Assembly: GCA_039921505.1 (NCBI GenBank)
Contig: JBDSBR010000018.1
Coordinates: 1,233-65,232 of the forward strand
DNA: 64,000 nucleotides
Direction of reading: 5' to 3'
From: Chitinophagaceae bacterium
GTDB taxonomy: Bacteria > Bacteroidota > Bacteroidia > Chitinophagales > Chitinophagaceae
Shown: positions 6,836-50,072 of the stretch, piece after piece
Layout: every line of letters begins with the position of its first letter
How positions within the stretch are numbered: the first letter of the stretch is position 1
The notes under the pieces: generated by a model
Seen by the model: only the letters and a program-made list of their open reading frames with translations
Databases searched by the model: none
Told to the model about the DNA's origin: nothing
Position numbers and translations under genes: made by a program

Positions 6836-6960
6836 TGGAGCACTAAGAACACAAAGGATACACAAAGCGCACTAAGAAATTAAAAGGCAGATCGAACCCT
6901 GCTTGAAGGGCTCTAAATACGTTGTGTCCTTCGTGGTTCTTAGTGTACTTCGTGCTCCAG
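6836..6960. repeat. ~9-nt-period inverted micro-repeat (CACTAAGAA/CACAAAG units vs CTTCGTG/CTTAGTG units)
   Basis: TGGAGCACTAAGAACACAAAGG... mirrored by ...CTTCGTGGTTCTTAGTGTACTTCGTGCTCCA. Confidence 0.75.
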
Positions 6961-7036
6961 TATTTAAGAAAGCAATCAAATATAAAACGCGGTATTGTCA
7001 GTGATATATTATTTATTTAACGATCAAGGATAAATT

Positions 7037-8074
7037 ATGCAAAGCAATCATCCAACACCAGAAAAAATTTTACAAATGGGGCTCGGTTTCTGGGCTTCCA
7101 AAACCTTATTAACCGCGGTCAATCTGAAATTATTCACCCACCTCGCTGAAAAAGGGAAACAAAGCGGAATGCAGATCAAAGACCAGTATGGGTTTAAGTG
7201 CACGGACAGGAATGTGTATGATTTCCTGGACACACTGACCTCTTTTGGTTTTTTACAAAGGGAAGGTATCCTGGAAACAGGCCTCTATTCAAATGCAGAG
7301 GAAACGGAGATCTTCCTGGACAAAAAGAAACCAAGTTATATCGGCGGTATCCTGGAAATGGCCAATAACAGGTTATATCCTTTCTGGGCCGACCTCGAAA
7401 CCGGACTGGCCACCGGCTTACCGCAGAATGAGAACAAACACGGCACGCATGATATGTTTGCTACTTTATATGAATCCCCGGAACGATTAAAAGAATTTGT
7501 GCACGCTATGAGCGGGATACAGATGGGGAATTTTATGCAGTTTGCACAGCAATTCGAATTCGACAACTATAAAACCCTTACCGATGCCGGCGGAGCGGGT
7601 GCTATGCTTTCCATCATGGTAGCCAAACATCAGCCGCATATGCAATGTACCAGTTTTGATCTCCCGGCAGTTAATGCCGTGGCAAAAGATAATATCAGCC
7701 AGTTCAATTTATCGGAAAGAGTTAAAACAGTGGATGGTAATTTTTTCGAGAACCCGCTGCCTCCTGCTGATGTTGTGGTGATGGGTAATATTCTTCATGA
7801 CTGGAATGAAGAGCAAAAACTGACACTTATGAACAAAGCTTTCGAGGCTTTACCCGAAGGCGGGGCCTTTGTCGCGATCGAGAATGTAATCGATGATGAA
7901 AGGAGAAAGAACTCTTTTGGTCTTATGATGAGCCTGAATATGCTGATCGAAACAGGAACGGGGTTTGATTATACATTTAAGGATTTTACAGGCTGGGCCA
8001 GCACGGTTGGTTTTAAGAGCACCCGGCTTTTGCCGCTTACCGGGCCTTCCAGCGCCGCCATTGCGATTAAATAA
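7037..8074 (+). CDS. SAM-dependent O-methyltransferase (dimerisation plus methyltransferase domain)
   Basis: DAGGAGA, FDLP, GNFF, GNILHDW motifs. Confidence 0.85.
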   Translation: MQSNHPTPEKILQMGLGFWASKTLLTAVNLKLFTHLAEKGKQSGMQIKDQYGFKCTDRNVYDFLDTLTSFGFLQREGILETGLYSNAEETEIFLDKKKPSYIGGILEMANNRLYPFWADLETGLATGLPQNENKHGTHDMFATLYESPERLKEFVHAMSGIQMGNFMQFAQQFEFDNYKTLTDAGGAGAMLSIMVAKHQPHMQCTSFDLPAVNAVAKDNISQFNLSERVKTVDGNFFENPLPPADVVVMGNILHDWNEEQKLTLMNKAFEALPEGGAFVAIENVIDDERRKNSFGLMMSLNMLIETGTGFDYTFKDFTGWASTVGFKSTRLLPLTGPSSAAIAIK

Positions 8075-10036
8075 TTATTTCAGCCGCACCCGGCCACTGG
8101 CATCCATTTCGATTTTATTCTCAGCCTGGAGAAACTCAAGCATCTTCCAGGCTTTTTCTTTCCTTACGCCATTGAGTTTAAGTAAAAGATCTTTGGTGTG
8201 CAATGACTCATACTTGACCATATTGATGATCCGGTGATGAAGCGTATCGAATTCTTCCTTCGTAAGATGAGCCGCTTTCTGGCGAAGGCAATTGTCACAG
8301 ATACCACAGGATCGGACATGACTATCGCCAAAGTAAGAACCAATGATGCGGCTACGGCAGGCGGCTTCTTCTTTTATATAGCGGATCATTTGTTTCATCC
8401 GCTGTTTGAATTGTTCCTTTCGTTTGTTATAGTCAACCATGTTGATCGAAATATCTTCCGCTTTGATGCGATCGCGGAGCAATAAAAGCTGGGGAACATC
8501 TTTCTGGGGATGGTATTCAATAATACCTGCCTGGTCTAACTGTAACAATTGTTTTTTTACTTCTTCCGCGCCTGTTCTCATCAACCCACCGATCACTTTT
8601 TCCGAAACGGGTACCGGCTGATCAAAGATCCCTTCGTAAGCCCGTAACAGGGTTTTTATAATAGGCTCAAGTTGCGGGTGTTCTTTTTCAAATCCGTAGA
8701 GGTAATCCTTATTAGTAATAAAGCCCGCTGTTGCCTGTATAAAGACCTGTTCGTTAAAAGCAAGCCAGCCTTCCTGTTCCAGTGTTTTCAGGGAATACAG
8801 GGTAGTATGACTGACGAGGTTGAATTTTTTTAAAAAATCAGAAATATCAAAATCATAATATTGTCCCCCGCCGGACCCGACTGGTATTTGAAGATAATTC
8901 GCCACGGCTTGGTAGATCTCCCTGATCGTATCCTGTGAAGGAAAACGCAGCGCAGCCAACTCTTCCAGTTCCTTCAGATCCCTTTCATCATATAATAATA
9001 CGGCATAGGATGTCTTCCCATCCCGTCCCGCCCGACCGGCTTCCTGGTAATAATTTTCGAGGCAATCCGGTACATCTGCATGGATCACGGTGCGGACATC
9101 TGCCTTATCGATCCCCATTCCGAAAGCATTGGTGCATACGATTACCCTGGTCTTATTATGGATCCATTCTTCCTGTCGCCTGCTTCTCTCTTCCTGCAAT
9201 AACCCCGCATGGTAAAAATTGGCCGGGATTTGCTGAAGCTGCAGCAGTTCGCTGATCTCTTTTGTTCTTTTCCTGCTTTTACAATAAACAATACTGCTGC
9301 CCGGTACTTTTTTCAACACTTCAATGATCTTATGGATCTTGGAACCGATATGAAAAGCACTGTACGAAAGATTGGGGCGTTCAAAGGATTGCCGGAAAAC
9401 TTCCCAACCCCAAAATGAACCTGCTGATTCCCGGTTTTCCGTGCTTAATTTTTCACAAATATCTTTTTGTACATCCGGGGTAGCTGAAGCTGTTAAGGCA
9501 AGCACAGGAATACCCGGAAGTTCTTTTCGGAGCGCAGCGATACGGAGGTAAGATGGACGAAAATCATATCCCCACTGGGATACGCAATGCGCCTCATCCA
9601 CAGCGACGAGCGTGACAGGCAACCCTGGTAAATATTCTTTGAATAAGGATGTCTCCAATCTTTCCGGTGAGACATAGAGGAACTTGCAATTACTTTCACC
9701 GGCTACTTTCAGGGTATTGATCACTTCTTTACGGCTCATACCCGAATAGATCGCAAAAGCCGTGATGTTTTTTTTCCGAAGGTTCTCTACCTGGTCCTTC
9801 ATTAAAGCGATGAGAGGGGAGATAACAAGACACAATCCTTCTTTCATCATAGCCGGTACCTGGTAACAGAGCGATTTGCCACCTCCTGTCGGCATCAGCG
9901 CCAGCACATCTTTATCATTGAGTACAGCGCGGATAATATCTGCCTGTAAGGGACGGAAAGATTCAAAACCCCAGTATTGATGGAGGATATCATGAATCGT
10001 GAGTCGTGAGTCGTGAGTAGGAGAAGATACCTGCAT
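8075..10036 (-). CDS. recQ: RecQ-family ATP-dependent DNA helicase (no obvious HRDC domain)
   Basis: MPTGGGKSLCYQ, AVDEAHCVSQWGYDFRP, LTASAT, YYQEAGRAGRDG, Zn motif CR...CGICDNC. Confidence 0.9.
   Translation of the reverse strand: MQVSSPTHDSRLTIHDILHQYWGFESFRPLQADIIRAVLNDKDVLALMPTGGGKSLCYQVPAMMKEGLCLVISPLIALMKDQVENLRKKNITAFAIYSGMSRKEVINTLKVAGESNCKFLYVSPERLETSLFKEYLPGLPVTLVAVDEAHCVSQWGYDFRPSYLRIAALRKELPGIPVLALTASATPDVQKDICEKLSTENRESAGSFWGWEVFRQSFERPNLSYSAFHIGSKIHKIIEVLKKVPGSSIVYCKSRKRTKEISELLQLQQIPANFYHAGLLQEERSRRQEEWIHNKTRVIVCTNAFGMGIDKADVRTVIHADVPDCLENYYQEAGRAGRDGKTSYAVLLYDERDLKELEELAALRFPSQDTIREIYQAVANYLQIPVGSGGGQYYDFDISDFLKKFNLVSHTTLYSLKTLEQEGWLAFNEQVFIQATAGFITNKDYLYGFEKEHPQLEPIIKTLLRAYEGIFDQPVPVSEKVIGGLMRTGAEEVKKQLLQLDQAGIIEYHPQKDVPQLLLLRDRIKAEDISINMVDYNKRKEQFKQRMKQMIRYIKEEAACRSRIIGSYFGDSHVRSCGICDNCLRQKAAHLTKEEFDTLHHRIINMVKYESLHTKDLLLKLNGVRKEKAWKMLEFLQAENKIEMDASGRVRLK
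9990..10017. repeat. (TCGTGAG)3 heptamer tract inside recQ 5' end
   Basis: Three exact copies at 9997-10017 plus degenerate TCATGAA; reads THDSRLT in RecQ. Confidence 0.85.
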
Positions 10037-10115
10037 CTACAAATCTTGTTTATAAGTCTTTGCTAAGCTATGAAAATGATTTAAGATGGGGCCCGTTAAG
10101 ATTGGTAACCTATAG

Positions 10116-11276: not shown

Positions 11277-11369
11277 AGAAGATAATGATATGTTTAATCG
11301 CCAGCGAATAAATGAAAATAGAATTAATTATGGATAGCCGTGGTTTCGGTTTGGTTAAAATGTTCCGGG

Positions 11370-13575: not shown

Positions 13576-13692
13576 TAGCGAGTAGGGGATGGTAAGTGGC
13601 GAGTGGGGATCGTGAATTGTTGGGAATCGATTCCTGATTTCCCACTAGCCACTCCCACTCGCCACTAGCCACCACCCACTCACCACTCCCTA
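13576..13692. repeat. Heptamer inverted micro-repeat between divergent P-ATPase and tsaE
   Basis: GTGGCGAGTGGGG-type left arm; CCCACTAGCCACTCCCACTCGCCACTAGCCACC right arm. Confidence 0.8.
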
Positions 13693-14145: not shown

Positions 14146-14254
14146 GATGCTGATTCTGGATGCTGGATACTGGTTGCTGGTTCTTAAAGAACTGAAATGA
14201 CTTTCCGCATCGGAACATCCAGCATCCAGAATCCAGTATCTAACATCCAGAACC
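14146..14254. repeat. Heptamer inverted micro-repeat in ald leader
   Basis: CTGGATG/CTGGATA/CTGGTTG units mirrored by ATCCAGC/ATCCAGA/ATCCAGT units. Confidence 0.8.
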
Positions 14255-21214: not shown

Positions 21215-21335
21215 TAGGGATTGGCGAGTAGCCAGTGGGAAGTGAGAAGTAGTGAGTGGCGGGTTTGCAACCTAAAACCTAAAACCTAAAACCTAAAACC
21301 TCGAACCTCAAACCTAAAACCTCAAACTGACAACT
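21215..21335. repeat. Two adjacent heptamer tracts (GGCGAGT-type; AACCTAA-type x9)
   Basis: Four exact AACCTAA copies from 21269, then variants AACCTCG, AACCTCA, AACCTAA, AACCTCA, AACTGAC to 21331. Confidence 0.85.
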
Positions 21336-22926: not shown

Positions 22927-22949
22927 AGCCCGTCTCAAAAGTCCGGACT

Positions 22950-23040
22950 CAACACAGAGCCACAGAGTTATTGAGTTTCACAGAGAGATACAGGGAAAGC
23001 ATCGCTCTGTGATTCTCTGTTCCTCTGTATCTCTGTGTTG
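22950..23040. repeat. CACAGAG/CTCTGTG inverted micro-repeat between convergent genes
   Basis: CAACACAGAG (22950) and CTCTGTGTTG (23031) form a perfect outer IR around degenerate internal copies. Confidence 0.75.
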
Positions 23041-23075
23041 AAAGTACTTTTGAGACAGCTTCCAATTCACCTTGA

Positions 23076-25283: not shown

Positions 25284-25964
25284 CTATTTGTAAGCTGAAA
25301 TATTGATCTTCTCCCTGCAAAACGAATACTCCACTTCATCATTACTGCTCACTACCACCAACCGTTCTTTACAATGATCACTGACCAGGCGCTGGTATAA
25401 TTCAATACCGGCAGCATCCAGGTTGGTACAGGGTTCATCCAGTAATACAATAGGGACATCAGAAAAAATAGATTGCGACAGCTTCACCCGCTGTTTCATC
25501 CCCGAAGAATAAAAACGGATCTGTTTGTTCAACGCTTTTTCCAAACCAATACTGGCAATGATCGATTCCGTTGTTATGCCTTTTAAAAAAGGTTTGAATC
25601 CCTGGTGAAAATCCAGGAACTCTTTTATTGTCATTTCTTCCACCACTTCCATATAGGGAGCGCATATGGAAACATAACGATAAATATTTTCGACAGGAAT
25701 AACGATACTCTTGGCTAATGGCTCACGGCTAACGGCTAACGGCTCTTGGCTCCCCGCTCCCCGCTCTCGGCTCCCCCCTCTGTATTCTATATTTCCTTCA
25801 GAGAGCATCATTGCGCCGCTCAACGCCTGTAACAGCGTACTCTTTCCCGACCCGTTCGGTCCCGTGATTGCATACGATTGTCCTGCTTCAAATGTATAAT
25901 TGAAATGACGGAAGATCCAGTCCCGGTTGAACCGCTTCGCGGCATCAGATAGGGAGATCGTCAT
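25284..25964 (-). CDS. ABC transporter ATP-binding protein (the type usually found after lpxA)
   Basis: GPNGSGKST, YSSGMKQR, LLDEP; overlaps the lpxA stop; carries a repeat-derived insertion. Confidence 0.88.
   Translation of the reverse strand: MTISLSDAAKRFNRDWIFRHFNYTFEAGQSYAITGPNGSGKSTLLQALSGAMMLSEGNIEYRGGSRERGAGSQEPLAVSREPLAKSIVIPVENIYRYVSICAPYMEVVEEMTIKEFLDFHQGFKPFLKGITTESIIASIGLEKALNKQIRFYSSGMKQRVKLSQSIFSDVPIVLLDEPCTNLDAAGIELYQRLVSDHCKERLVVVSSNDEVEYSFCREKINISAYK
25711..25780. repeat. Ten-unit heptamer tract inside ABC ATPase CDS
   Basis: TTGGCTA ATGGCTC ACGGCTA ACGGCTA ACGGCTC TTGGCTC CCCGCTC CCCGCTC TCGGCTC CCCCCTC. Confidence 0.85.
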
Positions 25965-31187: not shown

Positions 31188-31351
31188 GCCACAGATTACA
31201 TGGATTAACACAGATTAATACAGGAAGCCACGAAATCACACTAAATCACACAAAAAAATAACATGTTTTTTTTGTGATAATTCGTGTGTATTCGTGGCTT
31301 AAAAAAAACTGCGTAAGCAGTTAATCTGTGTTAATCCGTGTAATCTGTGGC
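31188..31351. repeat. Nested double inverted micro-repeat (~9-nt period)
   Basis: Outer 31-bp arms 31188-31218 / 31321-31351 differ at one base; inner AAGCCACGAA.../...TTCGTGGCTT pair. Confidence 0.9.
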
Positions 31352-34780: not shown

Positions 34781-34782
34781 AA

Positions 34783-34897
34783 AGACCGGAAGACCGGAAG
34801 AGGGGAAGACAGGAAGACCGGAAGACCGGAAGAATATTCTCATTAGCAGGGACTCTCTTCCGGACTTTCCGTCTTCCCGTCTTGCAGCTGTCTTCCC
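34783..34897. repeat. Octamer inverted micro-repeat (CCGGAAGA-type x6 vs TCTTCCG-type)
   Basis: CCGGAAGA CCGGAAGA GGGGAAGA CAGGAAGA CCGGAAGA CCGGAAGA, with a degenerate mirror at 34856-34897. Confidence 0.85.
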
Positions 34898-34928: not shown

Positions 34929-37900
34929 ATGGCTATGAATGCTAAATACAAGGAATTTACAGGCCTGGATCTGCCGGGTATGGAACGGGAGATTCTTGCA
35001 GAATGGACTGAAAAACAAGCTTTTGAAAAAAGTGTGTCCCTCCGGGAAGGCGCTGCCCCCTTTGTATTTTATGAAGGGCCCCCGAGCGCCAACGGCATGC
35101 CCGGTATTCACCATGTTATTTCGAGGACACTGAAAGACCTTGTGTGCCGGTATAAGACCATGAAAGGTTTCCAGGTAAAACGAAAAGGCGGATGGGATAC
35201 CCATGGACTCCCGATCGAACTGGGCGTAGAAAAAGAACTGGGTATCACCAAGGAAGATATCGGCAAAAAAATATCAGTAGAAGAGTATAACCAGAAATGC
35301 CGCGAAGCGGTATTGCGCTATAAAGATAAATGGGATGATATCACCCGCAAGATGGGGTATTGGGTAGATCTCAACGATCCTTATATCACTTACAAGAATG
35401 AATACATTGAATCGGTTTGGTGGATATTGAGCGAGTTGTATAAAAAAGGGTTGCTCTATGAAAGTGTAAGCATCCAACCCTATTCACCTGCAGCAGGAAC
35501 CGGGTTGAGTTCGCATGAGCTAAATCAACCGGGAACCTATAAGGATGTAAAGGATACAAGTGCGGTGGCGATGTTTAAAGCCTCCCCAAACCCCTCCGAA
35601 GGAGGGGCTTATAAAAACCCCGGTATTAGCAAACTTTTTTCTGCCATTGCGGAGTCTCAGAACCCTCCTTCGGAGGGCAGGGAGGCTGAGATTTTCTTCC
35701 TCGCCTGGACTACTACTCCCTGGACGTTACCCTCTAACCTGGGATTAACTGTTGGCGGTAATATTGATTATGTGCTAGTAAAAACAACTAATCCATATCT
35801 GTATAACCCTATTAATGTTGTTTTAGCAAAACAATTGATGCCAAAATACTTTGATGGCACAAGTATTAGTGATGCTGTAGGGACCAAGTATTCAATTCTT
35901 AGTCAAGATGATAATATAAAAAGGAAAAGTGTTGAATGGGAAATTATATCCGAATTCAAAGGAAAAGAACTGGAAGGCTGTGAATACGAACAACTGCTTC
36001 CTTACAAAGCCAATTCATTAAAAGCGATAGAAGAAATAACCCCGGGTGCAAAACCATTCCGTGTAATGGTGGATAGTTTCGTTACAACCGAAGACGGTAC
36101 CGGTATTGTACACACAGCTCCGGCATTTGGCGCCGATGACTATAAAGTAGGAAAGAAATACAACATTGGCATCCTTACCATGGTTGACAGGGAAGGAAAA
36201 TTTGTAGAAGGATTAGGTGAGTTCAGCAATCGTTTTGTAAAGAATTATAAGGATGACCCGAACTATGTTGATGTAAATGTTGATATCAGCGTAAAATTGA
36301 AAAAAGAGAACCGGGCTTTTAAAGTAGAAAAATACGAACACAATTACCCGCATTGCTGGAGAACCGATAAACCTATTCTTTATTACCCGCTGGATGCCTG
36401 GTTCATTAAGACCACGGCCGTAAAAGAAAGAATGGTGGAACTGAACAAAACCATCAACTGGAAGCCCAAATCCACTGGTGACGGGCGTTTTGGTAACTGG
36501 CTGGAGAACGTGGTAGACTGGAACCTGAGCCGTTCCCGGTATTGGGGAACACCATTACCTATCTGGAGAACCGAAGAAGGCGATGAAGAAGTTTGTATTG
36601 GCTCTATAGAAGAGTTGAACGATGGTATCCGCAAAGCAAGTGAAGTATTGGGTGGCGATGTCAACAAACATTACCTGCATGAAGGCATTCTTGATCTTCA
36701 CAAACCTTATGTAGATGATATCATTCTCGTAAGCAAGTCAGGTAAGCCGATGAAAAGGGTTTCTGACCTCATCGACGTCTGGTTTGATTCCGGTTCCATG
36801 CCCTATGCCCAGTGGGGATTGCCCGATACAAGTTCAAACCAGTTTGGTCCGCTGACCGCAGAGAACTTCTTCAAATATCATGCATCTTCGAAGGCCTCCC
36901 CCTTGTGGGGAGGCTTGGAGGGGGCTGCTTTCCCGGCTGATTATATCGCCGAAGGAGTGGACCAGACAAGAGGATGGTTCTATACACTCCATGCGATTGC
37001 CGTAATGCTGTTCGACAGCGTAGCTTATAAAACCTGCGTATCCAATGGCCTCGTACTGGATAAGAACGGTAATAAAATGAGCAAACGCCTGGGCAACGTG
37101 GTTGATCCTTTCACGACGATCGAAACCTTTGGTGCCGATGCGACGAGATGGTACCTCGTTACCAATGCATCGCCCTGGGATAATATGAAATTTGACCTTG
37201 AAGGGATCAAAGAAGTACAACGTAAGTTCTTCGGCACGTTGTACAATACTTACCAGTTCTTTGCGCTTTATTCGAACGTGGATGGATTTGCTTTCAAAGA
37301 AAAATATATCCCGCTGGCCGAACGCCCGGAGATCGACCGCTGGATACTTTCCTCGCTCAATACGGTGGTAAAGCAAGCCAATGAATACATGGATGATTAT
37401 GAGCCAACACAGGCTGGTCGTGTGATAGAGGATTTCGTGGATGAACAGTTGAGTAACTGGTATGTCCGTCTTTGCCGCCGCCGTTTCTGGAAAGGTGAGT
37501 ATGAGCAGGATAAGATCTGCGCTTACCAGACATTATATGAATGCCTGGAAACAATCAGTCGCCTGGTAGCACCCATTTCTCCATTCTTCAGCGATGTATT
37601 GTTCCGCAATCTTAATGCAGTTACAAAAAGATTTAATGCAGAGTCTGTGCATCATATAAGCTATCCTGATTTAGATGCATGCCAGGACCCCCCAACGGGA
37701 GGCAGAGGGGCTATCGATGAATCGCTCGAAGAAAGAATGCAACTGGCACAGGATGTTTCTTCCCTGGTCTTATCGCTCCGGAAGAAAATGAATCTGAAAG
37801 TTCGCCAGCCTTTGCAAAAGGTACTGGTACCTGTATTGAGTGTTTCCATGAAACAGCAACTCCAAAAAGTGGAAGACCTGGTTAAAGCAGAAGTAAATGT

Positions 37901-38465
37901 AAAAGAGATTGAATACCTGGACCCGGATAATACTTTTATCCGGAAAAAGATAAAACCCAATTTTGTGGCCCTGGGCAAAAAGCTTGGTCCGAAAATGAAA
38001 TCGGTATCCACAGCTTTGGCACAATTCACCCAGGAAGAGATAGCCAGGTTGGAAAAAGAAGGTCAATTTAATTTGTCAATTGAGGGCGAACCTGTAATAT
38101 TACAGATTGCGGAAGTGGAGATCAGCAGCGAAGATATTCCCGGCTGGACCGTAGCCAATAAAGGCAGCCTGACCGTGGCGTTGGATATTACAGTGACCCC
38201 AGAACTGGAGGCCGAAGGAAATGCCCGGGAATTTGTAAACCGCATCCAGAAGATCCGTAAGGACAGCGGATTTGACCTCACTGACAGGATAGAAGTTAAA
38301 GTGTCGGTAGCAAACGGACTAAAAGATTCATTGGCTCAGTTTAAAGACTATATTTGCGCCGAAATTCTGGCAGATAAACTGGAATTTATGGCTGGGATTA
38401 AGGATGGCTCTGAGATTGAGATAAATGATGTTTCGCTAAATGTGATTGTTTTAAAAAAAGGGTAA
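34929..38465 (+). CDS. ileS: Isoleucine--tRNA ligase (type 2) with three repeat-derived in-frame inserts
   Basis: EGPPSANG, GWDTHGLP, WTTTPWTLP, GTGIVH, DWNLSRSRYWG, EGVDQTRGWF, KMSKR. Confidence 0.98.
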   Translation: MAMNAKYKEFTGLDLPGMEREILAEWTEKQAFEKSVSLREGAAPFVFYEGPPSANGMPGIHHVISRTLKDLVCRYKTMKGFQVKRKGGWDTHGLPIELGVEKELGITKEDIGKKISVEEYNQKCREAVLRYKDKWDDITRKMGYWVDLNDPYITYKNEYIESVWWILSELYKKGLLYESVSIQPYSPAAGTGLSSHELNQPGTYKDVKDTSAVAMFKASPNPSEGGAYKNPGISKLFSAIAESQNPPSEGREAEIFFLAWTTTPWTLPSNLGLTVGGNIDYVLVKTTNPYLYNPINVVLAKQLMPKYFDGTSISDAVGTKYSILSQDDNIKRKSVEWEIISEFKGKELEGCEYEQLLPYKANSLKAIEEITPGAKPFRVMVDSFVTTEDGTGIVHTAPAFGADDYKVGKKYNIGILTMVDREGKFVEGLGEFSNRFVKNYKDDPNYVDVNVDISVKLKKENRAFKVEKYEHNYPHCWRTDKPILYYPLDAWFIKTTAVKERMVELNKTINWKPKSTGDGRFGNWLENVVDWNLSRSRYWGTPLPIWRTEEGDEEVCIGSIEELNDGIRKASEVLGGDVNKHYLHEGILDLHKPYVDDIILVSKSGKPMKRVSDLIDVWFDSGSMPYAQWGLPDTSSNQFGPLTAENFFKYHASSKASPLWGGLEGAAFPADYIAEGVDQTRGWFYTLHAIAVMLFDSVAYKTCVSNGLVLDKNGNKMSKRLGNVVDPFTTIETFGADATRWYLVTNASPWDNMKFDLEGIKEVQRKFFGTLYNTYQFFALYSNVDGFAFKEKYIPLAERPEIDRWILSSLNTVVKQANEYMDDYEPTQAGRVIEDFVDEQLSNWYVRLCRRRFWKGEYEQDKICAYQTLYECLETISRLVAPISPFFSDVLFRNLNAVTKRFNAESVHHISYPDLDACQDPPTGGRGAIDESLEERMQLAQDVSSLVLSLRKKMNLKVRQPLQKVLVPVLSVSMKQQLQKVEDLVKAEVNVKEIEYLDPDNTFIRKKIKPNFVALGKKLGPKMKSVSTALAQFTQEEIARLEKEGQFNLSIEGEPVILQIAEVEISSEDIPGWTVANKGSLTVALDITVTPELEAEGNAREFVNRIQKIRKDSGFDLTDRIEVKVSVANGLKDSLAQFKDYICAEILADKLEFMAGIKDGSEIEINDVSLNVIVLKKG
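35579..35687. repeat. GC-rich palindromic element (both arms) inside ileS
   Basis: AGCCTCCCCAAACCCCTCCGAAGGAGGGG ... CCCTCCTTCGGAGGGCAGGGAGGCT. Confidence 0.85.
36894..36926. repeat. GC-rich palindromic half-element inside ileS
   Basis: GCCTCCCC-CTTGT-GGGGAGGC-TTGGAGGGGGCT. Confidence 0.75.
37688..37712. repeat. Degenerate GC-rich half-element inside ileS
   Basis: CCCCCCAACGGGAGGCAGAGGGGCT. Confidence 0.55.
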
Positions 38466-38468: not shown

Positions 38469-39275
38469 ATGGCAAGTAAAAAGAAACAGGCTCCCAAAAA
38501 GGCCGCCAAACCCGCCCCCAAAGCTGCTTCAAAAAAACCAGCAGCAAAGAAAACTGTGAAAAAATCTGCACCTAAAAAAGCGGCGCCCAAAAAAGCGTCC
38601 CCTAAACCCGTGGCTAAAAAACCAGTACCCAAAGTAATAGCAAAACCAGCGGCTAAACCGGCCCCGAAAGTGGCGGCCAAACCCGAACCGGTTGTGAAAG
38701 CGCTACCTAAAAAACCCGGAACAGTTGATCCCAAATCATTGGTATCGATCAAGCCCAAGGTAAAACCTGTTATCAAAAAAGAACCTCCAAAACCCATGAA
38801 AGTTGTTATGCCTAAAATAACTACCAAGAGCTCGGTGAAATATGAACCCGAGTTCACGAAATCTGTACTGGACACGTCAGCAACGGTTTACCAGTCAACA
38901 GGACCGACAATGCGGTATTCTGATAATGACCTCACGGAATTCCGGGAGATCATCCAGAAAAAGCTGGACGCTGCTAAAAAAGAACTGGCTTATCTCCAGG
39001 GGCTGATTACCCGTAAGGATGAAGGCGGTGATATGGATGAGGCCCGCTATATGACGATGGAAGACGGCAGTGTGAGTATGGAAAGGGAACAACTGAGTCA
39101 GATGGCCAGCCGCCAGATCACGTTTATTGATCACCTGGAAAAAGCCATGATGCGTATCGAAAATAAGACCTATGGTATTTGCCGGGTAACAGGTAAGCTG
39201 ATCGACAAGGCCCGTCTTCGTGCTGTACCACATGCTACACTCAGCATTGAGGCCAAGCAGATGATGAATAAGTAG
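38469..39275 (+). CDS. dksA: TraR/DksA-family regulator with long Lys/Ala/Pro-rich N-terminus
   Basis: C-terminal MEDGS...EREQLSQMASRQ...YGICRVTGKLIDKARLRAVPHATLSIEAK; follows ileS. Confidence 0.85.
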   Translation: MASKKKQAPKKAAKPAPKAASKKPAAKKTVKKSAPKKAAPKKASPKPVAKKPVPKVIAKPAAKPAPKVAAKPEPVVKALPKKPGTVDPKSLVSIKPKVKPVIKKEPPKPMKVVMPKITTKSSVKYEPEFTKSVLDTSATVYQSTGPTMRYSDNDLTEFREIIQKKLDAAKKELAYLQGLITRKDEGGDMDEARYMTMEDGSVSMEREQLSQMASRQITFIDHLEKAMMRIENKTYGICRVTGKLIDKARLRAVPHATLSIEAKQMMNK

Positions 39276-39280
39276 TAAAT

Positions 39281-39361
39281 AAGTATATAAAGTAAATAGG
39301 GTATATAAGGTCAGAAGACACTTTATATACCCTATTTACTTTATCTACCTATTTACTTTAC
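39281..39361. repeat. 9-nt-period inverted repeat between convergent genes (possible bidirectional terminator)
   Basis: 23-bp arms 39288-39310 / 39321-39343, 22 of 23 complementary. Confidence 0.85.
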
Positions 39362-40311: not shown

Positions 40312-41013
40312 ATGAGAAAGTTCAGACTTCTTTCCCTTTTACTTGTTACTATCGCATTTCTCGCTGTCAATTGTACCAAAGAAGGTCCAGAAGGACCTGC
40401 TGGTGCAGCTGGCCCCCAGGGGCCTGCTGGTACACCTGGTACTACTGGTCCTGCTGGTCCTGCTGGTCCTGCTGGTCCTACTGGTCCTGCCGGTGCAACC
40501 GGTGCTACCGGTCCTGCCGGAACAGCTAATGTAATCTATAGTCCCTGGACACCTTTCACAGCCCCTAACTGGAGTGCAACTACTGTCGATATATTTGGAA
40601 AAACTGCAAGAAGGTATACTGCTGCAGCGCCTGGTATCACTGCTACCATGTTGTCACAGGGTACGATCCTGGTTTATTTCCAGGGAGGTGGTTCACCAGG
40701 AACAGTTCGTATACTGCCGTATACAACATTCAATTTTACACAACCTGTTAACCAGGTCATCGAGCCCAGTTTTGTTGTCGGATCGATCCTGATAAATTTC
40801 TATAACATCAGTGATAATAACGACCCCGGAACCTTTACAGGAACCGCCGGTACTCCTCCTACAGGTAATATATACCGTTACATCCTGATCCCCGGTGGAG
40901 TAGCAGGTGGTCGTGGTACTAGCCCGGGTGTTGGTGGAAGCGGTTATACTGAAGCCCAGTTGAAAGCAATGCCTTACAGCGAAGTTTGCAGGATATTCAG
41001 CGTTCGCCAATAA
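40312..41013 (+). CDS. Collagen-like (Gly-X-Y x16) lipoprotein
   Basis: Lipobox LAVNC; GPEGPAGAAGPQ...GTANVIYSPW. Confidence 0.85.
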   Translation: MRKFRLLSLLLVTIAFLAVNCTKEGPEGPAGAAGPQGPAGTPGTTGPAGPAGPAGPTGPAGATGATGPAGTANVIYSPWTPFTAPNWSATTVDIFGKTARRYTAAAPGITATMLSQGTILVYFQGGGSPGTVRILPYTTFNFTQPVNQVIEPSFVVGSILINFYNISDNNDPGTFTGTAGTPPTGNIYRYILIPGGVAGGRGTSPGVGGSGYTEAQLKAMPYSEVCRIFSVRQ

Positions 41014-43658: not shown

Positions 43659-43871
43659 AGATAATAGATGACAGATGATAGATAATAGAGGACAGATGAT
43701 AGTAGAGGAAGACTCTATTACCAGGGTTTTACAATTTGTTGAGAAAGTTACAATAAACAGTAACTATCATCTGTCATCTATTAGTTATTATCTTGATTAG
43801 AGGAGTGTTGGAGAAATAGAGAAAACTTCAATTTAAAGTAACTATCATCTGTCATCTATCAGTTATCATCT
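43659..43871. repeat. Heptamer inverted repeat with one left arm and two right arms
   Basis: AGATAAT/AGATGAC/AGATGAT x6; AGTAACTATCATCTGTCATCTAT duplicated at 43759 and 43837. Confidence 0.85.
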
Positions 43872-43873
43872 GA

Positions 43874-44302
43874 TCAAAGTTTTTTCTCCATTACAAAGTG
43901 CGGGATAGTGATTTCATTGAATTCATCACTGGCAACACGATAGCCCATTTTTTCATAAAAGCCGATAGCATTTTTTCGGGCATGCATGGAAAGTATCTTG
44001 TAGCCCTGGTCGCGGGCCAGGTTCTCTGCAAAACCCATCAGTGCTCTGCCAATTCCTTTTCCCTGCAGGTCATTCAGCACGGCCATTTGCCGTAACCGGA
44101 CGGTGTCGGTGCTTTCTTCCACGAGCATACAGCAACCCAGCATATCTTCATCCTCAAAGGCGGCAATCAGCATATTCTCTTTTTCCTGTTCCAGTTCATC
44201 GGGTGAAAAACCAAGCCCGAGTGGTTTACGCAGGATATCATCCCGCAGCTTCACCATCTGCTGGTATTCATTACTTCCATGGTCGATAATTTTCAGCGCC
44301 AT
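43874..44302 (-). CDS. GNAT-family N-acetyltransferase
   Basis: RLRQMAV...QGKGIGRALM, MHARKNAIGFYEKMGY. Confidence 0.9.
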   Translation of the reverse strand: MALKIIDHGSNEYQQMVKLRDDILRKPLGLGFSPDELEQEKENMLIAAFEDEDMLGCCMLVEESTDTVRLRQMAVLNDLQGKGIGRALMGFAENLARDQGYKILSMHARKNAIGFYEKMGYRVASDEFNEITIPHFVMEKKL

Positions 44303-44490: not shown

Positions 44491-44516
44491 CTCCCAATAA
44501 ACAAAACTTAAAGAAC

Positions 44517-44753
44517 ATGTCAGACATTGCATCAAGAGTTAAAAAGATCATCGTTGACAAGCTGGGCGTTGACGAAGCAGAAGTTACCAATGAAGCTTCT
44601 TTTACAAACGATCTCGGCGCCGATTCATTAGATACGGTAGAACTGATCATGGAATTTGAAAAAGAATTCAATATCTCCATTCCGGATGAGCAGGCTGAGA
44701 CCATTACTACAGTGGGTCAGGCTGTGGCTTACCTGGAAGAGCACGCCAAGTAA
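44517..44753 (+). CDS. acpP: Acyl carrier protein
   Basis: [20 protein letters not shown]. Confidence 0.98.
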
Positions 44754-44812
44754 TTCATTTCGTTACCGGTAACGGCTATTGCTTTAACCGGCAGACAGGA
44801 AATAAATTCACT

Positions 44813-44850
44813 CCGCCTTCTGACTGTTGTGACAGCGAAGGCGGTTTTTT
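44813..44850 (+). terminator. Terminator between acpP and fabF
   Basis: CCGCCTTC...GAAGGCGG followed by TTTTTT. Confidence 0.75.
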
Positions 44851-44907
44851 ACTTCATACAATAAGCCCCGGGCGATCCGCCCTTAGGCTGCAGCCCGCAG
44901 CTTGTTG

Positions 44908-44915
44908 TATCTTTG
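44908..44915 (+). promoter_or_regulatory. -7 promoter box (fabF)
   Basis: TATCTTTG. Confidence 0.55.
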
Positions 44916-44943
44916 CGTAAACTATTTTATCTTAAAGCGATAT

Positions 44944-46197: not shown

Positions 46198-46198
46198 T

Positions 46199-46291
46199 GT
46201 TTGAAGTTTGAGGTTTCAGCTTCTCTTACACAATTCCCTTAAAGACAGGAAAATAACTGACCAGGAAACGTTAAACGTCAAACATCAAACT
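46199..46291. repeat. Heptamer inverted repeat between fabF and rnc
   Basis: GTTTGAAGTTTGAGGTTT vs AAACGTTAAACGTCAAACATCAAACT. Confidence 0.7.
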
Positions 46292-46312
46292 TTTTTTTGT
46301 ATTTTAACAGCT

Positions 46313-47053
46313 GTGGATTTTTTTAAATTTTTTTGGGGGAAGCATTCCGGTACCGCTTTTAAGAAAGAATTGAAGAATATCCTGGGATTTAAACCCGGGA
46401 ATATCTCGCTTTATAAAACAGCACTTACTCACCGGTCTGTCCGCGAAAAGGCCGATGAGAATAACGAAAGACTCGAATACCTCGGCGATGCCGTCCTCAG
46501 TGCCATGATCGCCGATTACCTGTTCAAGCGGTATCCTTACAAAGAAGAAGGGTTTCTCACAGAAATGCGGAGCAAAATGGTGAACCGCCAGCAACTGAAC
46601 GAGATCGCCGTTCGTATGGGTCTCAAAAAGATCACCCTCTATAACAAAATGGACGGCTCGCTGAAAGTGAGCCAAATCTTCGGGAACACACTGGAAGCCC
46701 TTGTCGGTGCCATTTACCTGGACCATGGTTATAAAAAAGCCGCTAAATGGGTATTCGAAACCATTATTCAACCGCATATGTTCATGGACGACCTCGAGAT
46801 CCTTGAGATTAACCATAAGAACAAACTCTATGGCTGGGCAAATAAGAATGGCAAAGTGCTGGAATTTGAAACACTCAACGAGAAACTGGAGAACGGTCGC
46901 AGGTTATTTACTGTAGCGGCAGTTGTTGATGGAAAGAATATTGCGGAAGGAAAAGCCTTTAATAAAAAAGACGCTTCTCAAATAGCTGCCCAGGTCGCCG
47001 TGTTGAAATTGGGGATCGTTAATGCAGATTCGATTGCGGAAGAACAGGGTTAA
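46313..47053 (+). CDS. rnc: Ribonuclease III
   Basis: NERLEYLGDAVL, LEALVGAIYLDHG, dsRBD. Start uncertain; GTG 46313 chosen. Confidence 0.93.
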   Translation: MDFFKFFWGKHSGTAFKKELKNILGFKPGNISLYKTALTHRSVREKADENNERLEYLGDAVLSAMIADYLFKRYPYKEEGFLTEMRSKMVNRQQLNEIAVRMGLKKITLYNKMDGSLKVSQIFGNTLEALVGAIYLDHGYKKAAKWVFETIIQPHMFMDDLEILEINHKNKLYGWANKNGKVLEFETLNEKLENGRRLFTVAAVVDGKNIAEGKAFNKKDASQIAAQVAVLKLGIVNADSIAEEQG

Positions 47054-47056
47054 CAA

Positions 47057-47120
47057 GTATATAAAGTATCTAAGGTTTAAAAGCCAGCATCCAGCATCCA
47101 GAATCTAGAATCCAGCATCA
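47057..47120. repeat. Fused nonamer (AAGTATATA) and heptamer (ATCCAGC/A) tracts at rnc/mce convergence
   Basis: Same units as at 39281 and 14215; overlaps the mce stop region. Confidence 0.7.
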
Positions 47121-47521
47121 TTCCTCCTCTCCATACATAATTCAATAAGAACTCCGTTGGTATGTTTCGGGTGAAGAAAACAAACCAGTTTATTATCGGC
47201 CCCGGCTTTAGGAGTTTCGCTCAGCAGGACAAACCCCTCTTTTTTCAGTCTTTCCATTTCGGCTTCAATATCTGCCACGTCGAAAGCGATATGGTGCAGC
47301 CCTTCGCCTTTTTTCTCGATAAAGCGGGCGATCACACCATCGGGATCAATGCTTTCCAGGAGCTCGATTTTGGTTGCCCCCTGTTTAAAGAAAGCCGTGT
47401 TCACCTTCTCTGTTTCAACCCGTTCGGTCTTGTAACAGGTGCTGTTCAGCAGTTTTTCGAATAAAGGGATGGAATCAGCCAGTTTCTTAACTGCGATCCC
47501 GATATGCTCGACTTTTTGCAT
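47105..47521 (-). CDS. mce: Methylmalonyl-CoA epimerase
   Basis: HIGIAV, KIELLE, GEGLHHIAF, FLHPKHTNGVLIELC. Confidence 0.93.
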   Translation of the reverse strand: MQKVEHIGIAVKKLADSIPLFEKLLNSTCYKTERVETEKVNTAFFKQGATKIELLESIDPDGVIARFIEKKGEGLHHIAFDVADIEAEMERLKKEGFVLLSETPKAGADNKLVCFLHPKHTNGVLIELCMERRNDAGF

Positions 47522-47610
47522 AAAAAGAAGCTTGAGTTGTAAGGGGTTGCGATTTCGGTAAAATCGCCCGTCCACCCGAAATTACCCCTTTCAGTTAGAA
47601 CCTTTTAGAG

Positions 47611-47618
47611 TAATTTTG
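47611..47618 (+). promoter_or_regulatory. -7 promoter box (iscS operon)
   Basis: TAATTTTG, about 127 nt before the ATG. Confidence 0.5.
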
Positions 47619-47745
47619 TGTTTAGAAATAGATTAGAAAATTTAAGAACTCTCCAAAGGTTCCCGTTAGGAAATCTTTCTCCTATGCGAGCCTTTGGAGG
47701 GTTTTAAAACCCTCGGAGGGTTACAAAAAACCCCGATTAGATTTT

Positions 47746-48963
47746 ATGCTCAAATTTCCCATTTACCTGGACCATAACGCCACGACACCCTGTGACCCAA
47801 GGGTCGTGGAAGCGATGATACCTTACTTTACAAATAATTTCGGTAACGCGGCCAGCCGTAATCACCCTTTTGGCTGGCAGGCAGAAGAAGCAGTTGACCT
47901 GGCCCGTGAACAGGTGGCCAAACTAATCGGCGCCGAGCCTAAAGAAATCATCTTTACATCGGGTGCTACTGAAGCTGATAATCTCGCTATCAAGGGAGTG
48001 TTTGAAATGTATGCCAGCAAGGGCAATCATATCATCACCTGCAATATCGAACACAAAGCTGTACTCGATACCTGCAAGCATATTGAAAAAGAAGGCGGAG
48101 AAGTTACTTACCTCAAAGTAAAAGACAATGGGCTGATCGACCTGGGAGAACTGGAAGCTGCTATCAAACCCACTACGATCCTTATCGCAATCATGTATGC
48201 CAATAACGAAATTGGTACGATCAACCCGATGAAAGAGATCGCTGCGATCGCCAAAAAGAAAGGTGTCCTGGTGTTCAGCGATGCTACCCAGGCAGTAGGC
48301 AAGATACCTGTAGATGTCAATAAAGACGGCATTGACCTGATGGCATTTACCGCACATAAAATGTATGGACCCAAAGGGGTTGGCGCATTGTATGTACGTC
48401 GGAAAAATCCAAGAGTAAAAGTAACTGCCCAGATGGATGGTGGCGGTCATGAGCGCGGCATGAGAAGTGGTACGCTGAATGTACCCGGTATCGTTGGGTT
48501 TGGAAAAGCCTGCGAAATCTGCGTGAATGAAATGGAAGAAGAGACTAAACGGGTAAGTAAACTCAGGGATAAACTGCAAACCGAATTACTAAAAGTAGAA
48601 GAGACTTACCTGAATGGTGATAAAGAACATAAATTACCACATGTAACGAATATCTCTTTCAAATACGTGGAAGGAGAAGGGTTGCTGATGGGTTTTAATA
48701 AGAATATTGCTCTTTCTTCAGGATCGGCCTGTACATCGGCATCCCTGGAGCCATCTTATGTGTTAAAGGCGTTGGGCCTGGGAGATGACCTGGCACACAG
48801 TTCGCTTCGGTTTGGCCTGGGAAGGTTCACGACCGAAGACCAGATCGATTATACGGTAGAGCAGGTGTCAAACACCGTTAATAAATTAAGAGAGATGAGC
48901 CCTCTCTGGGAAATGTATAAAGAAGGAATTGATATGAACAGTATTGAATGGGCGCACCACTAA
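47746..48963 (+). CDS. iscS: Cysteine desulfurase IscS
   Basis: [32 protein letters not shown]. Confidence 0.97.
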
Positions 48964-49053
48964 GATGTGCGATGTGTGAAGTACGATGTACGAAGTTGCT
49001 TCACACAGGAGAATGTTTCTTACTTCGTACATCAAACATCTTAAATCGTACAT
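48964..49053. repeat. Heptamer inverted repeat between iscS and iscU
   Basis: GATGTGC GATGTGT GAAGTAC GATGTAC vs TACTTC GTACATC AAACATC TTAAATC GTACATA. Confidence 0.8.
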
Positions 49054-49056
49054 ATC

Positions 49057-49476
49057 ATGTCATACAGCGAAAAAGTGATCGACCATTACCAGAACCCCAA
49101 GAACGTGGGAACACTGGATAAAAGCAAGACAAATGTCGGAACCGGTCTCGTGGGCGCACCTGAGTGTGGTGACGTAATGCGTCTCCAGATCGAAGTGGAT
49201 GAGGCAACGGGCCTTATAACGGATGCCAAGTTCAAGACCTTTGGCTGTGGCTCTGCTATCGCTTCTTCTTCCCTGGCTACAGAGTGGCTGAAAGGAAAAT
49301 CAGTCGATGAAGCGATGGCCATTGATAATATGACCATCGTGGAAGAACTCCATCTTCCCCCTGTAAAAATTCACTGCTCTGTACTGGCAGAAGATGCGAT
49401 CAAAGCAGCTGTCAATGATTACCGGGTAAAGAATGGGCTGCCGGCACTGAAGTTTGACGAAACGGTTGTTCATTAA
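49057..49476 (+). CDS. iscU: Fe-S cluster scaffold IscU
   Basis: GAPECGDVM, FKTFGCGSAIASSS, LPPVKIHCSVLAEDA. Confidence 0.97.
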   Translation: MSYSEKVIDHYQNPKNVGTLDKSKTNVGTGLVGAPECGDVMRLQIEVDEATGLITDAKFKTFGCGSAIASSSLATEWLKGKSVDEAMAIDNMTIVEELHLPPVKIHCSVLAEDAIKAAVNDYRVKNGLPALKFDETVVH

Positions 49477-49483
49477 GAAGGGA

Positions 49484-49586
49484 CCTCCCCAACCCCTCCA
49501 AAGGAGGGGCTTATTCAAATCATAAAATAATGAACGATTCAAATAATCAAGTTTCCTCAATCCCCCCTTCGGGGGGTGGGGGGGCT
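49484..49586. repeat. GC-rich palindromic element (both arms) overlapping the iscA start
   Basis: CCTCCCCAACCCCTCCAAAGGAGGGGCTT ... TCCCCCCTTCGGGGGGTGGGGGGGCT. Confidence 0.85.
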
Positions 49587-49928
49587 TTAGCAAACGCGAT
49601 TTATATAAGTGACAAGGCCAAGGTGAAGATTCACCAGTTGATGAAAGATGCCGGGGTGGAAGAGGATGCCTCTTATTTTGTCCGGGTAGGTGTAGTAGGT
49701 GGTGGTTGCTCTGGTTTAAGCTATAAGCTGGACTTTGATAACGAGACCAAACCAATGGACCAGGTGTTTGAGGACAATGGCATAAAAGTAGTGACTGACC
49801 TGAAGAGTTTCCTCTACCTCGTGAATACGACCCTTGACTTTTCCGATGGGTTGAACGGAAAAGGATTTTATTTCAGCAATCCTAATGCGAGCCGGACCTG
49901 TGGTTGCGGTGAGAGTTTTGCAGTGTAG
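49530..49928 (+). CDS. iscA: HesB/IscA Fe-S assembly accessory protein
   Basis: GGCSGLSY, F.NPNASRTCGCGESF. Confidence 0.93.
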   Translation: MNDSNNQVSSIPPSGGGGALANAIYISDKAKVKIHQLMKDAGVEEDASYFVRVGVVGGGCSGLSYKLDFDNETKPMDQVFEDNGIKVVTDLKSFLYLVNTTLDFSDGLNGKGFYFSNPNASRTCGCGESFAV

Positions 49929-49934
49929 AGAGGC

Positions 49935-50072
49935 AAGTGGGTCTGGCGAGTAGCTAGTAGGGTTGGGACAGATTAAGAATAAAATCATAACTACTTATTT
50001 GAGCAGGCCGCAAGGCCTTTTTTTATTTGCTGATTTTCCTTCCCACTAGTCACTAGCCAAACCCCATTCCCC
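49935..50072. repeat. Heptamer inverted repeat enclosing a terminator
   Basis: TGGCGAGTAGCTAGTAGGG vs TCCCACTAGTCACTAGCCA. Confidence 0.7.
50005..50024 (+). terminator. Terminator after iscA
   Basis: AGGCC-GCAA-GGCCT followed by a T-run. Confidence 0.7.

Follow-up and report, generated by a model that had tools for sequence, protein, structure and literature searches.

Short-period repeat hairpins in the intergenic DNA of a Chitinophagaceae-like genome as probable gene-less members of a population of foldback elements

A 64,000-nucleotide (nt) stretch of a Chitinophagaceae-like metagenome-assembled genome (the window; C18:1233-65232) carries some 16 loci of short tandem repeats, many of them built as two inverted arms around a spacer. 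These loci had been listed in an earlier note on the window, which proposed that they might be empty sites of a mobile or repeat-generating system. We find that foldback elements of the same kind as the intervening sequences (IVS) of 23S rRNA probably occur throughout the genome, mostly without a gene, and that the window loci belong to this gene-less majority. Two classes of element are distinguished here. Class A is made of 7-nt units (sometimes 8) with the G-rich strand facing inward, and when it bears a gene, the product is a four-helix-bundle (4HB) protein belonging to the S23p/Avd-like family (TIGR02436). Class B is made of 8-10-nt units with a C-R-C-N-G/A-A-G core, and its gene-bearing form carries a GxxExxY protein (TIGR04256, PD-(D/E)XK-like). 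The genome (G000) was assembled from rhizosphere metagenomes, its sequence occurring only in DNA metagenome runs, and comprises 3.80 Mb in 40 contigs at ~45% GC; a rough gene map based on long open reading frames (ORFs) assigned 89% of it to coding and 11% to non-coding DNA. It was compared with 37 congeners (numbered G) from a genus of many species, whose isoleucyl-tRNA synthetase (IleRS) is 72-84% identical to that of this genome in syntenic full-length comparisons.

A link between the repeats and two gene families is provided by the genes that such arms enclose. The genome holds 15 4HB loci and 6 GxxExxY genes. Inverted arms, built mostly of heptamers and in two cases of octamers, enclose 14 of the 15 4HB loci. 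All 6 GxxExxY genes likewise lie between arms, which consist mostly of longer CACAGAG, CACGAAG or CACAGATTAA-type units, while one of them (C30:90037) is flanked instead by two copies of a ~100-nt palindromic element. The same association was observed outside of this genome. Arms, mostly of period 7, were present at 62/78 4HB loci from ~15 phyla, compared to 7/78 controls, and metagenomic GxxExxY loci displayed arms of 8-10-nt units with a conserved C-R-C-N-G/A-A-G core at 62/76 loci, compared to 1/76 controls. Octamer arms were seen at Flavobacterium loci (L095-L117), and Bacteroides thetaiotaomicron, run as a control, gave a score for TIGR02436. Thus, the suggestion of the earlier note that such arms often bracket 4HB or GxxExxY genes was borne out, and the repeats do have a gene family associated with them. 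Cassettes with a 4HB gene point in the same direction as the host genes by 11 to 1, and the cargo 4HB protein has evolved under purifying selection (dN/dS = 0.11).

A profile search of the window returned no match to TIGR02436 and none to TIGR04256, and its loci therefore represent the gene-less state. Their units are those of the gene-bearing forms: the loci at 6836, 22950 and 31188 carry class-B units seen around GxxExxY genes, and the unit families of the heptamer loci (AGATGAT, ATGTACG, GGCGAGT and AACCTAA) are also found on either side of resident 4HB genes. The unit type of hairpin 6837..6960 is that of the arms of the GxxExxY gene at C39:245065; the core of hairpin 22949..23041 recurs in the arms of the GxxExxY gene at C27:55621 and of the metagenomic GxxExxY loci; and the outer arms of the element at 31190..31349 also bracket the GxxExxY gene at C2:37998. 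Among the heptamer hairpins, the families of 13580..13688 and 48964..49053 are those of the arms of the 4HB genes at C34:88996 and C39:295409, respectively, while the element that fills the convergent spacer at 43659..43876 belongs to the family found in the arms of the 4HB cassette at glgA|glgC, discussed below. The 4HB paralogues at C8:258428 and C35:19813 have arms of AGATGAT and TTTAGGG units, respectively.

The sole 4HB gene without arms (L186, G000 C1:9116-9469) lies ~6 kb from the only reverse transcriptase (RT) of the genome (C1:15471-18176), which adjoins a DUF2130 gene. The 4HB proteins are homologues of Avd, the partner of RT in diversity-generating retroelements (DGRs). A DGR reading of the 4HB genes was rejected on the grounds that the single RT lies near no cassette, template and variable repeats being outside the search; unrelated genes stand between the RT and the armless 4HB gene, and the locus therefore does not have the look of a DGR.

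We next consider the frequency and placement of the tracts, based on a genome-wide scan for periodicity and inverted repeats. Five dinucleotide-preserving shuffles of ~412 kb of rough intergenic DNA, taken from the whole genome, served as the chance control. Period-7 tracts numbered 421 compared to a mean of 10 in the shuffles, period-8 tracts 117 compared to 15, and period-9 tracts 68 compared to 12, so that the possibility raised in the earlier note of a frequency no higher than in shuffled DNA does not hold. Period 7 is the dominant tandem repeat genome-wide, accounting for 681 of the 2179 rows returned by Tandem Repeats Finder (TRF), and 454 of 650 period-7 tracts fall within the non-coding 11% of the genome. 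Each tract was also aligned to the reverse complement of its own flanks, with reversed sequence as the control. A partner arm scored above the 99th percentile of the control for ~30% of tracts and above the 95th for ~40%. Although mirrored arms had been described as the usual state, a complementary partner within 300 nt exists for only about one tract in two when the whole genome is considered.

Altogether 208 distinct hairpin loci were found, in which the arm measures 25 nt and the loop 45 nt at the median. Per kb of spacer there were 0.87 hairpins where the flanking genes are convergent, 0.56 where they are co-directional and 0.23 where they are divergent. As had been noticed in the window, they start soon after a stop codon, with the 5' arm beginning a median of 8 nt past the upstream stop (interquartile range 2-19 nt). 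Nearly every spacer of the S10-spc ribosomal-protein operon contains one. Units do differ between neighbouring loci, as originally described, yet they recur across the genome rather than being confined to single loci: among 460 heptamer tracts in non-coding DNA there are only 106 canonical units, and the top 8 of these account for about half of the tracts. An intrinsic (rho-independent) terminator, which calls for a GC-rich stem followed by a U-run, was considered and rejected, since the GC content of the arms is 0.34, a T-run follows only 24/128 co-directional hairpins, and hairpins lie inside ribosomal-protein operons. A different, GC-rich palindromic element (GAGACAAGGCATGCCTTGTCTC) was also seen in spacers of the ribosomal-protein operon (G000 C1:129805-130167 and C1:138844-138883) and in the loop of the hairpin at C16:59088.

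The elements display a marked strand polarity. In 163 of 197 hairpins the left arm has more G than C on the top strand, with 34 showing the opposite, so that the G-rich strand faces inward. The bias is 114 to 10 for period 7 and is reversed for period 10 (3 to 11), and the left arms of 4HB loci from other phyla are G-rich by 51 to 7. Where two tracts adjoin within one spacer, a G-type tract precedes a C-type tract in 77 cases, and the reverse order was never observed. This polarity is intrinsic to the elements, strand-symmetric and independent of the orientation of the flanking genes, and we regard it as the main unexplained fact.

Orthologous spacers of the congeners were found in filled, gene-less and empty states, demonstrating the presence/absence polymorphism whose absence would have counted against the earlier proposal. 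In the ribosomal-protein operon, the rpmC-rpsQ spacer measures 62 nt here compared to 13 nt in most congeners, rpsS-rplV 102 nt compared to 11-12 nt in most congeners, rpsC-rplP 120 nt compared to 20-34 nt in six, and rplN-rplX 112 nt compared to 25-41 nt in eight. One site in this operon is occupied in different species by hairpins of different unit families. Within the window, the convergent spacer 43174->43874 measures 226 nt here compared to 8-49 nt in eight congeners, and the spacer before iscU, which is filled by hairpin 48964..49053 here, measures 26 nt in G017. Upstream of the RNase III gene, hairpin spacers of 83-98 nt occur in G013, G015 and G004, compared to -1 to 39 nt in the other congeners compared. 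At site 38469->39381 the core of hairpin 39274..39360 is common to this genome, G013 and G008, while G001, G004, G006 and G015 have a classic GC-rich terminator.

Two sites were informative with respect to gene-bearing forms. At glgA|glgC the spacer is ~10 nt in most congeners (at least 15), and eight possess an arm-4HB-arm cassette of 580-700 nt encoding orthologous proteins (63-81% identity among those compared). All eight carriers fall within one clade of the tree or among its untested neighbours, a confinement that fits one old gain followed by several clean losses. In three of these cassettes (L163, L175 and L184) the 5' arm begins inside the last glgA codons, and as a result the C-terminus and stop of GlgA differ with and without the cassette (NR-stop, KP-stop and KDKN-stop compared to K-stop). 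At accB|accC this genome and G004 contain a 4HB cassette. The hairpin found there in G016 and G034 holds no gene, and its arms match those of the cassettes in type; other species have either other unit families or spacers of 31-37 nt. Judged by their arms, the gene-less hairpins at accB|accC favor gene loss as their probable origin. Paired changes were evident as well: arms of orthologous cassettes read GATGATA/TATCATC in one and AAGATAA/TTATCTT in another, and the rpsQ-rplN hairpin displays compensatory changes at 6/23 pairs. Since the polarity is strict, the two classes are tied to two gene families, and gain and loss at orthologous sites is block-wise, simple slippage alone is insufficient to account for the pattern, in agreement with what the earlier note had argued from the window.

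Differences among genomes and among copies were also recorded. The number of 4HB genes is zero in six streamlined congeners (1.5-1.8 Mb) and ranges over 1-26 in the others, and the two streamlined congeners that were sampled (G010 and G017) have minimal spacers in the ribosomal-protein operon. The number of 4HB genes correlated with tract density in sampled DNA (Spearman rho 0.57, p = 0.012, n = 19), as calculated without correction for phylogeny or genome size. Copies of the signature TGATANNTGATANNTGATA number 23 in this genome and 40 in G043, compared to 0-5 in the 36 other congeners, which represents a lineage-specific burst of one unit family. In metagenome contigs from three runs, assembled independently, the only indel over 7.7 kb was one extra heptamer (ATAGATA) in the arm at 43677. 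Metagenome contigs also end or branch at repeat arms (window 43840-43871, 47084, 49556 and 50042-50073), with several different continuations; the arms act as assembly breakpoints because they are common to other loci.

The two classes differ in how their copies are related. Class-B elements of the CACAGATTAA type, including that at window 31190-31349, share 87-95% identical internal sequence (60-100 nt) at six loci; the loop of the window element recurs at C9:62732, C6:22925, C8:401448, C21:40764 and C13:65677. This similarity favors copying akin to that of MITEs (miniature inverted-repeat transposable elements) as the probable source of the CACAGATTAA elements. In contrast, class-A loops are largely unique, with sharing within a family at 4-7% in most families (29% in AGATGAT, partly residual arm units) compared to 2.2% between families; shared 9-mers are only slightly in excess within families. 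None of the inner leader or trailer sequences of the 20 cassettes recurs elsewhere in the genome, a result that led us to reject recent deletion derivatives as the source of the gene-less hairpins. Simple inverted duplication is likewise not supported as the origin of the arms, which are no closer to each other than to other arms of the same family.

Taken together, these findings suggest how foldback elements of the IVS kind might persist in operon spacers. By analogy with the rRNA IVS, the elements would be tolerated selfish inserts that are read through from host operons. Their arms would pair in the transcript to form a 20-35-bp stem that RNase III would cut as it does IVS stems in rRNA, and this cutting would free the cargo mRNA and uncouple the insert from the flanking genes. 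The arms may grow and shrink through 7-nt slippage. Gene-less forms may arise partly by loss of the cargo, as at accB|accC, and partly by copying without cargo, as in class B.

Several observations weigh against this interpretation. Transcription through the stems and their cutting by RNase III are drawn by analogy only. Neither a target-site duplication nor another insertion signature was visible at the filled/empty junctions compared by eye, and no transposase was found linked to the elements, although transposases were not searched for systematically. Pairs of G-type and C-type tracts that are not complementary also keep the polarity, by 18 to 0, which pairing does not explain. The uniqueness of class-A loops and cassette leaders implies that most class-A hairpins are neither whole-element copies nor recent deletion derivatives. 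The two arms of one hairpin are as similar as arms of different loci of the same family (0.832 compared to 0.838), and identity in register is barely above that in shifted registers. Mismatches on the sense strand are of the G:U type in 75 cases and the A:C type in 87, and in the absence of a G:U excess, selection on an RNA stem is not visible. Finally, G016 and G002 carry an AGATGAT-armed cassette yet have only 0-2 dispersed AGATGAT copies, which refutes the idea that the presence of a cassette predicts a burst of its unit family. Thus, class-A arms do not look like plain transposed copies, nor do they look like stems kept by RNA-level selection alone. A CTTTAAAG-type junction motif was weakly enriched (2.5% compared to 0.8%), and no conclusion rests on it.

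The IVS are among the known systems that come close to the elements. In Coxiella, terminal inverted repeats make up the stem of the 23S IVS, which RNase III cuts; polymorphic GACAGAT heptamers precede the S23p ORF of this IVS, and its origin has been called unclear (PMC4990558). The IVS of Coxiella burnetii and Leptospira share with the elements described here the cargo family (PF05635 / TIGR02436) and an ORF placed in the loop of an inverted-repeat stem. The 5' side of the Coxiella stem carries tandem GACAGAT heptamers, with a copy number that varies among strains, and ORF-less forms exist (Salmonella-type IVS) (PMC4990558). Differences were also apparent. The elements here occupy spacers between protein-coding genes, including those of the ribosomal-protein, acc and glg operons, and not rRNA helices; each locus of the window and each of the 21 cassettes of the genome is placed between protein-coding genes or at their ends, and insertion into 23S helix 25 or 45 was seen at none of them. 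Moreover, a genome contains hundreds of these elements, most of them ORF-less, with several unit families side by side, and a second class carries GxxExxY cargo.

The elements also resemble the short tandemly repeated repetitive (STRR) sequences of cyanobacteria and other long heptameric simple sequence repeats (SSRs), which, in the passages describing them, are intergenic tandem heptamers far above expectation. Xanthomonas is described in one such passage as having 70-75 inverted (convergent) GGGAATC pairs (PMC4692102), and another places TAACTGA repeats adjoining start codons in Beggiatoaceae, cyanobacteria and a few Bacteroidetes (PMC4679880). TAACTGA is a unit variant of the AGATGAT family found here. 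The passages on STRR, GGGAATC and TAACTGA, which propose slippage, G-quadruplexes or regulator binding, contain neither a flanked gene family nor the inward-G rule; in addition, many unit families coexist here in one genome. The comparison with STRR heptamers made in the earlier note is reasonable so far as analogy goes: a 4HB locus from a cyanobacterium (L071) is built in the same way, with heptamer arms, although the host here is a member of the Chitinophagaceae and not a cyanobacterium, and the unit sequences differ.

Resemblance to MITEs and to repetitive extragenic palindromic elements (REP/REPIN) lies in the small, non-coding, dispersed intergenic hairpins that far outnumber a related coding form, and, for MITEs, in the internal sequence shared by class-B CACAGATTAA copies at 87-95%. 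The differences are that no transposase (for example, RAYT) was identified, short of a systematic search, and no target-site duplication was seen by eye; that class-A copies share a unit family but not a loop; and that each arm is a tandem array and not a unique terminal inverted repeat. The Foldback (FB) transposons of eukaryotes have long inverted arms of degenerate short tandem repeats, vary in arm length, and occur with or without a central coding segment. The elements here resemble them in architecture only, and differ from them in domain of life, cargo and scale.

A wider reading, which we offer tentatively, is that 4HB genes, GxxExxY genes and the gene-less hairpins could belong to one bacteria-wide foldback class, in which the protein recognizes its own unit and helps to make or spread the arms, as a repeat-generating rather than a cut-and-paste system. 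The rRNA IVS, STRR, GGGAATC pairs and TAACTGA repeats could then be its footprints, and, were this single system real, the inward-G polarity would record the mode of arm synthesis.

Three alternatives to foldback elements of the IVS kind were weighed. The first, which we judge rather unlikely, holds that the tracts are binding-site arrays that benefit the host, with each 4HB or GxxExxY protein recognizing its own unit in DNA or RNA and the gene-less hairpins constituting a regulon for post-transcriptional control, mRNA stabilization or operon punctuation. Unit families common to many dispersed loci suit it, and most of the abundant families match the arms of one resident 4HB gene; by our own estimate, however, which is not a formal test, drawing at random from the pool of tracts would produce about the same match. 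The same informal and not decisive estimate led us to reject the idea of one master gene per unit family. Arms as alike across loci of one family as within one hairpin, conservation of the CRCNGAG core of GxxExxY arms across environments, the purifying selection on the cargo protein, and the correlation of 4HB gene count with tract density all suit binding arrays. So does a proposal, seen in a passage of PMC4679880 (MacGregor 2015), that TAACTGA repeats before start codons bind a regulator, TAACTGA being a variant of the AGATGAT unit. Orthologous housekeeping spacers lack tracts in many congeners, which is difficult to reconcile with a regulon, and G016 and G002 again show that an AGATGAT-armed cassette can exist with 0-2 dispersed copies.

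The second alternative, which we consider distinctly unlikely, is that arms are made de novo at the two 3' ends of a break or gap in the spacer by reiterative copying of a 7-10-nt template, so that the G-rich strand comes to face inward on each side and the enclosed DNA becomes the loop. Break synthesis would account for a polarity that remains strict even for non-complementary tracts (18 to 0), for arms that are not mirror copies of each other, and for degenerate units; it also suits the unique class-A loops, one of which is a native terminator, and the lineage-specific burst of one family (23 copies here and 40 in G043, with 0-5 elsewhere). The established homology of 4HB proteins to Avd points in the same direction, but the elements have no candidate polymerase linked to them: the only RT of the genome is located beside DUF2130, ~6 kb from the armless 4HB gene and near no cassette. 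In addition, the compensatory changes between orthologous cassettes point to pairing that has been kept, class-B elements clearly copy as whole units, and the model as a whole is drawn from pattern.

The last alternative, that the tracts are ordinary long SSRs in which slippage favors 7-nt units, that the hairpins are selected as terminators or 3' stabilizers, and that the link to small genes is incidental, is very improbable and is largely refuted by the gene association: heptamers are indeed the commonest long SSR class in many genomes, with slippage proposed as the cause (Mrazek 2007, as cited in passages of PMC4679880 and PMC4692102), a one-unit indel was seen in an arm, hairpins are enriched at gene 3' ends and classic terminators occupy the same site in some congeners, but arms accompany two specific gene families at 62/78 and 62/76 loci compared to 7/78 and 1/76 controls, two classes differ in period and are opposite in polarity, gain and loss is block-wise with a ~10-nt spacer as the alternative state, arm GC (0.34) and the rarity of T-runs (24/128 co-directional hairpins) do not suit terminators, and tracts are located within operons for ribosomal proteins, in which terminating transcription would do harm.

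Records of tandem heptamers in bacterial genomes go back to 1990, and those of rRNA intervening sequences to about the same time. Both are still called unexplained (PMC4679880 and PMC4692102, in the passages concerned; PMC4990558), and our full-text literature search returned no paper tying 4HB or GxxExxY genes to repeat-built arms as a class. The present findings provide the heptamer repeats with a partner gene family, as the same small proteins are found between the same repeat-built arms in operon spacers of many phyla. The gene-less hairpins that crowd intergenic DNA share those unit families, and heptamers and rRNA IVS are thereby tied together. Several questions now become testable, namely whether a 4HB protein binds its own heptamer, whether GxxExxY proteins cut CACAGAG arrays, and whether RNase III processes the stems. 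With respect to annotation, these elements shape spacers by the hundred in each genome, among them the spacers of ribosomal-protein operons; they also break assemblies at their arms and can extend or alter gene ends.

The individual loci of the window are summarized in Table 1. TRF recovered tracts at the ~16 positions originally listed, where they are also visible in the raw sequence. Periods of 7 and 8 were as claimed, while the loci assigned a period of ~9 really have 8-10-nt units. Eleven loci were folded, with z-scores calculated against dinucleotide shuffles, and 10 of these formed long stems with z-scores of -2.7 to -10.8 (6836, 13576, 14146, 22950, 34783, 39281, 43659, 46199, 48964 and 49935). 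The nested double hairpin at 31188, which was found by arm alignment and lies outside of the folded set, can be added to them. The description of the loci as mirrored arms therefore stands for these hairpins, but not for the solitary tracts at 9990 and 25711 or for the non-complementary pairs at 21215 and 47057/47085.

Table 1. Short-period repeat loci of the window (positions in window coordinates)
Position	Element	Units, arms or context	Fold
6837..6960; arms ~6837-6876, 6921-6960	class-B hairpin	9-10-nt CAC(N)AAG-type units, gene-free loop	-45.1 kcal/mol, z = -4.2
9993..10018	solitary heptamer tract	minus-strand feature; TGAGTCG x3.7 on + strand, C-rich on sense strand	
13580..13688	heptamer hairpin, GGCGAGT / ACTCGCC family	divergent spacer before tsaE	-56.5 kcal/mol, z = -5.8
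14146..14250	heptamer hairpin, GATGCTG / CATCCAG	begins 18 nt past tsaE stop codon	-49 kcal/mol, z = -6.2
21215..21327	chimeric pair	G-rich heptamer tract (GGCGAGT-like), then AACCTAA x8.4; non-complementary	no fold, z = +0.99
22949..23041	class-B hairpin, CACAGAG / CTCTGTG	~8-nt units; convergent spacer	-47.2 kcal/mol, z = -5.8
25713..25773	heptamer tract, ~8-9 units (61 nt), no partner arm	minus-strand feature; in frame inside ABC-transporter ATPase domain region	
31190..31349	nested class-B element	outer arms CACAGATTAA-type, 31190-31223 and 31320-31349; inner arms CACGAAAT-type, 31229-31255 and 31268-31296	
34782..34883	octamer hairpin, AAGACCGG / CCGTCTTC	just upstream of ileS	-47.8 kcal/mol, z = -4.5
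39274..39360	hairpin of 8-9-nt units, AGTAAATA / AGTATATA	convergent spacer	-41.6 kcal/mol, z = -10.8
43659..43876	AGATGAT-family element	G-rich arm 43659-43702; two C-rich arms, ~43764-43795 and 43842-43876	z = -8.1
46199..46290	weak heptamer hairpin, GTTTGAR / AAACRTC	directly upstream of RNase III gene	z = -2.7
47055..47119	tract pair, AAGTATATA x2, then CCAGCAT x5	non-complementary; convergent site overlapping end of epimerase gene	
48964..49053	heptamer hairpin, GATGTAC / GTACATC	fills spacer between gene ending 48963 and iscU	z = -4.2
49935..50072	heptamer hairpin, GGCGAGT / ACTAGCC family	classic GGCC-GCAA-GGCC-T7 terminator in loop	-49.2 kcal/mol, z = -4.2

Some of these loci merit further description. 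The first hairpin is located between a stop codon at 6810 and a start codon at 7037. The tract at 9993..10018 adjoins the start codon of a RecQ-like helicase gene, lying at the 5' end of that gene or just before it. No complementary partner of this tract was found in the neighbouring spacer by reading the sequence; the tract falls inside a rough ORF and was therefore outside of the arm scan. The chimeric pair at 21215..21327 obeys the G-then-C order. In the gene containing the tract at 25713..25773, the Pfam ABC_tran match is one unbroken stretch, residues 45-205, which exceeds the profile in length by ~24 residues, and the tract would represent a repeat tolerated within coding sequence. The RNase III gene (rnc) corresponds to window 46208-47053 and encodes Ribonuclease_3 and dsrm domains; in E. 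coli, rnc is autoregulated via a stem in its own leader.

Two neighbouring coding features were also recorded. The IleRS encoded at window 34929-38465 is 1178 aa long, compared to 1116-1165 aa in congeners, and we read this long form as the Bacteroidota type. The ORF at 40312-41013 contains a 9-nt coding tandem repeat (GGTCCTGCT-like, at least 8 copies) at 40423-40520. Its product is a collagen-like Gly-X-Y run, and the repeat bears no relation to the intergenic tracts.

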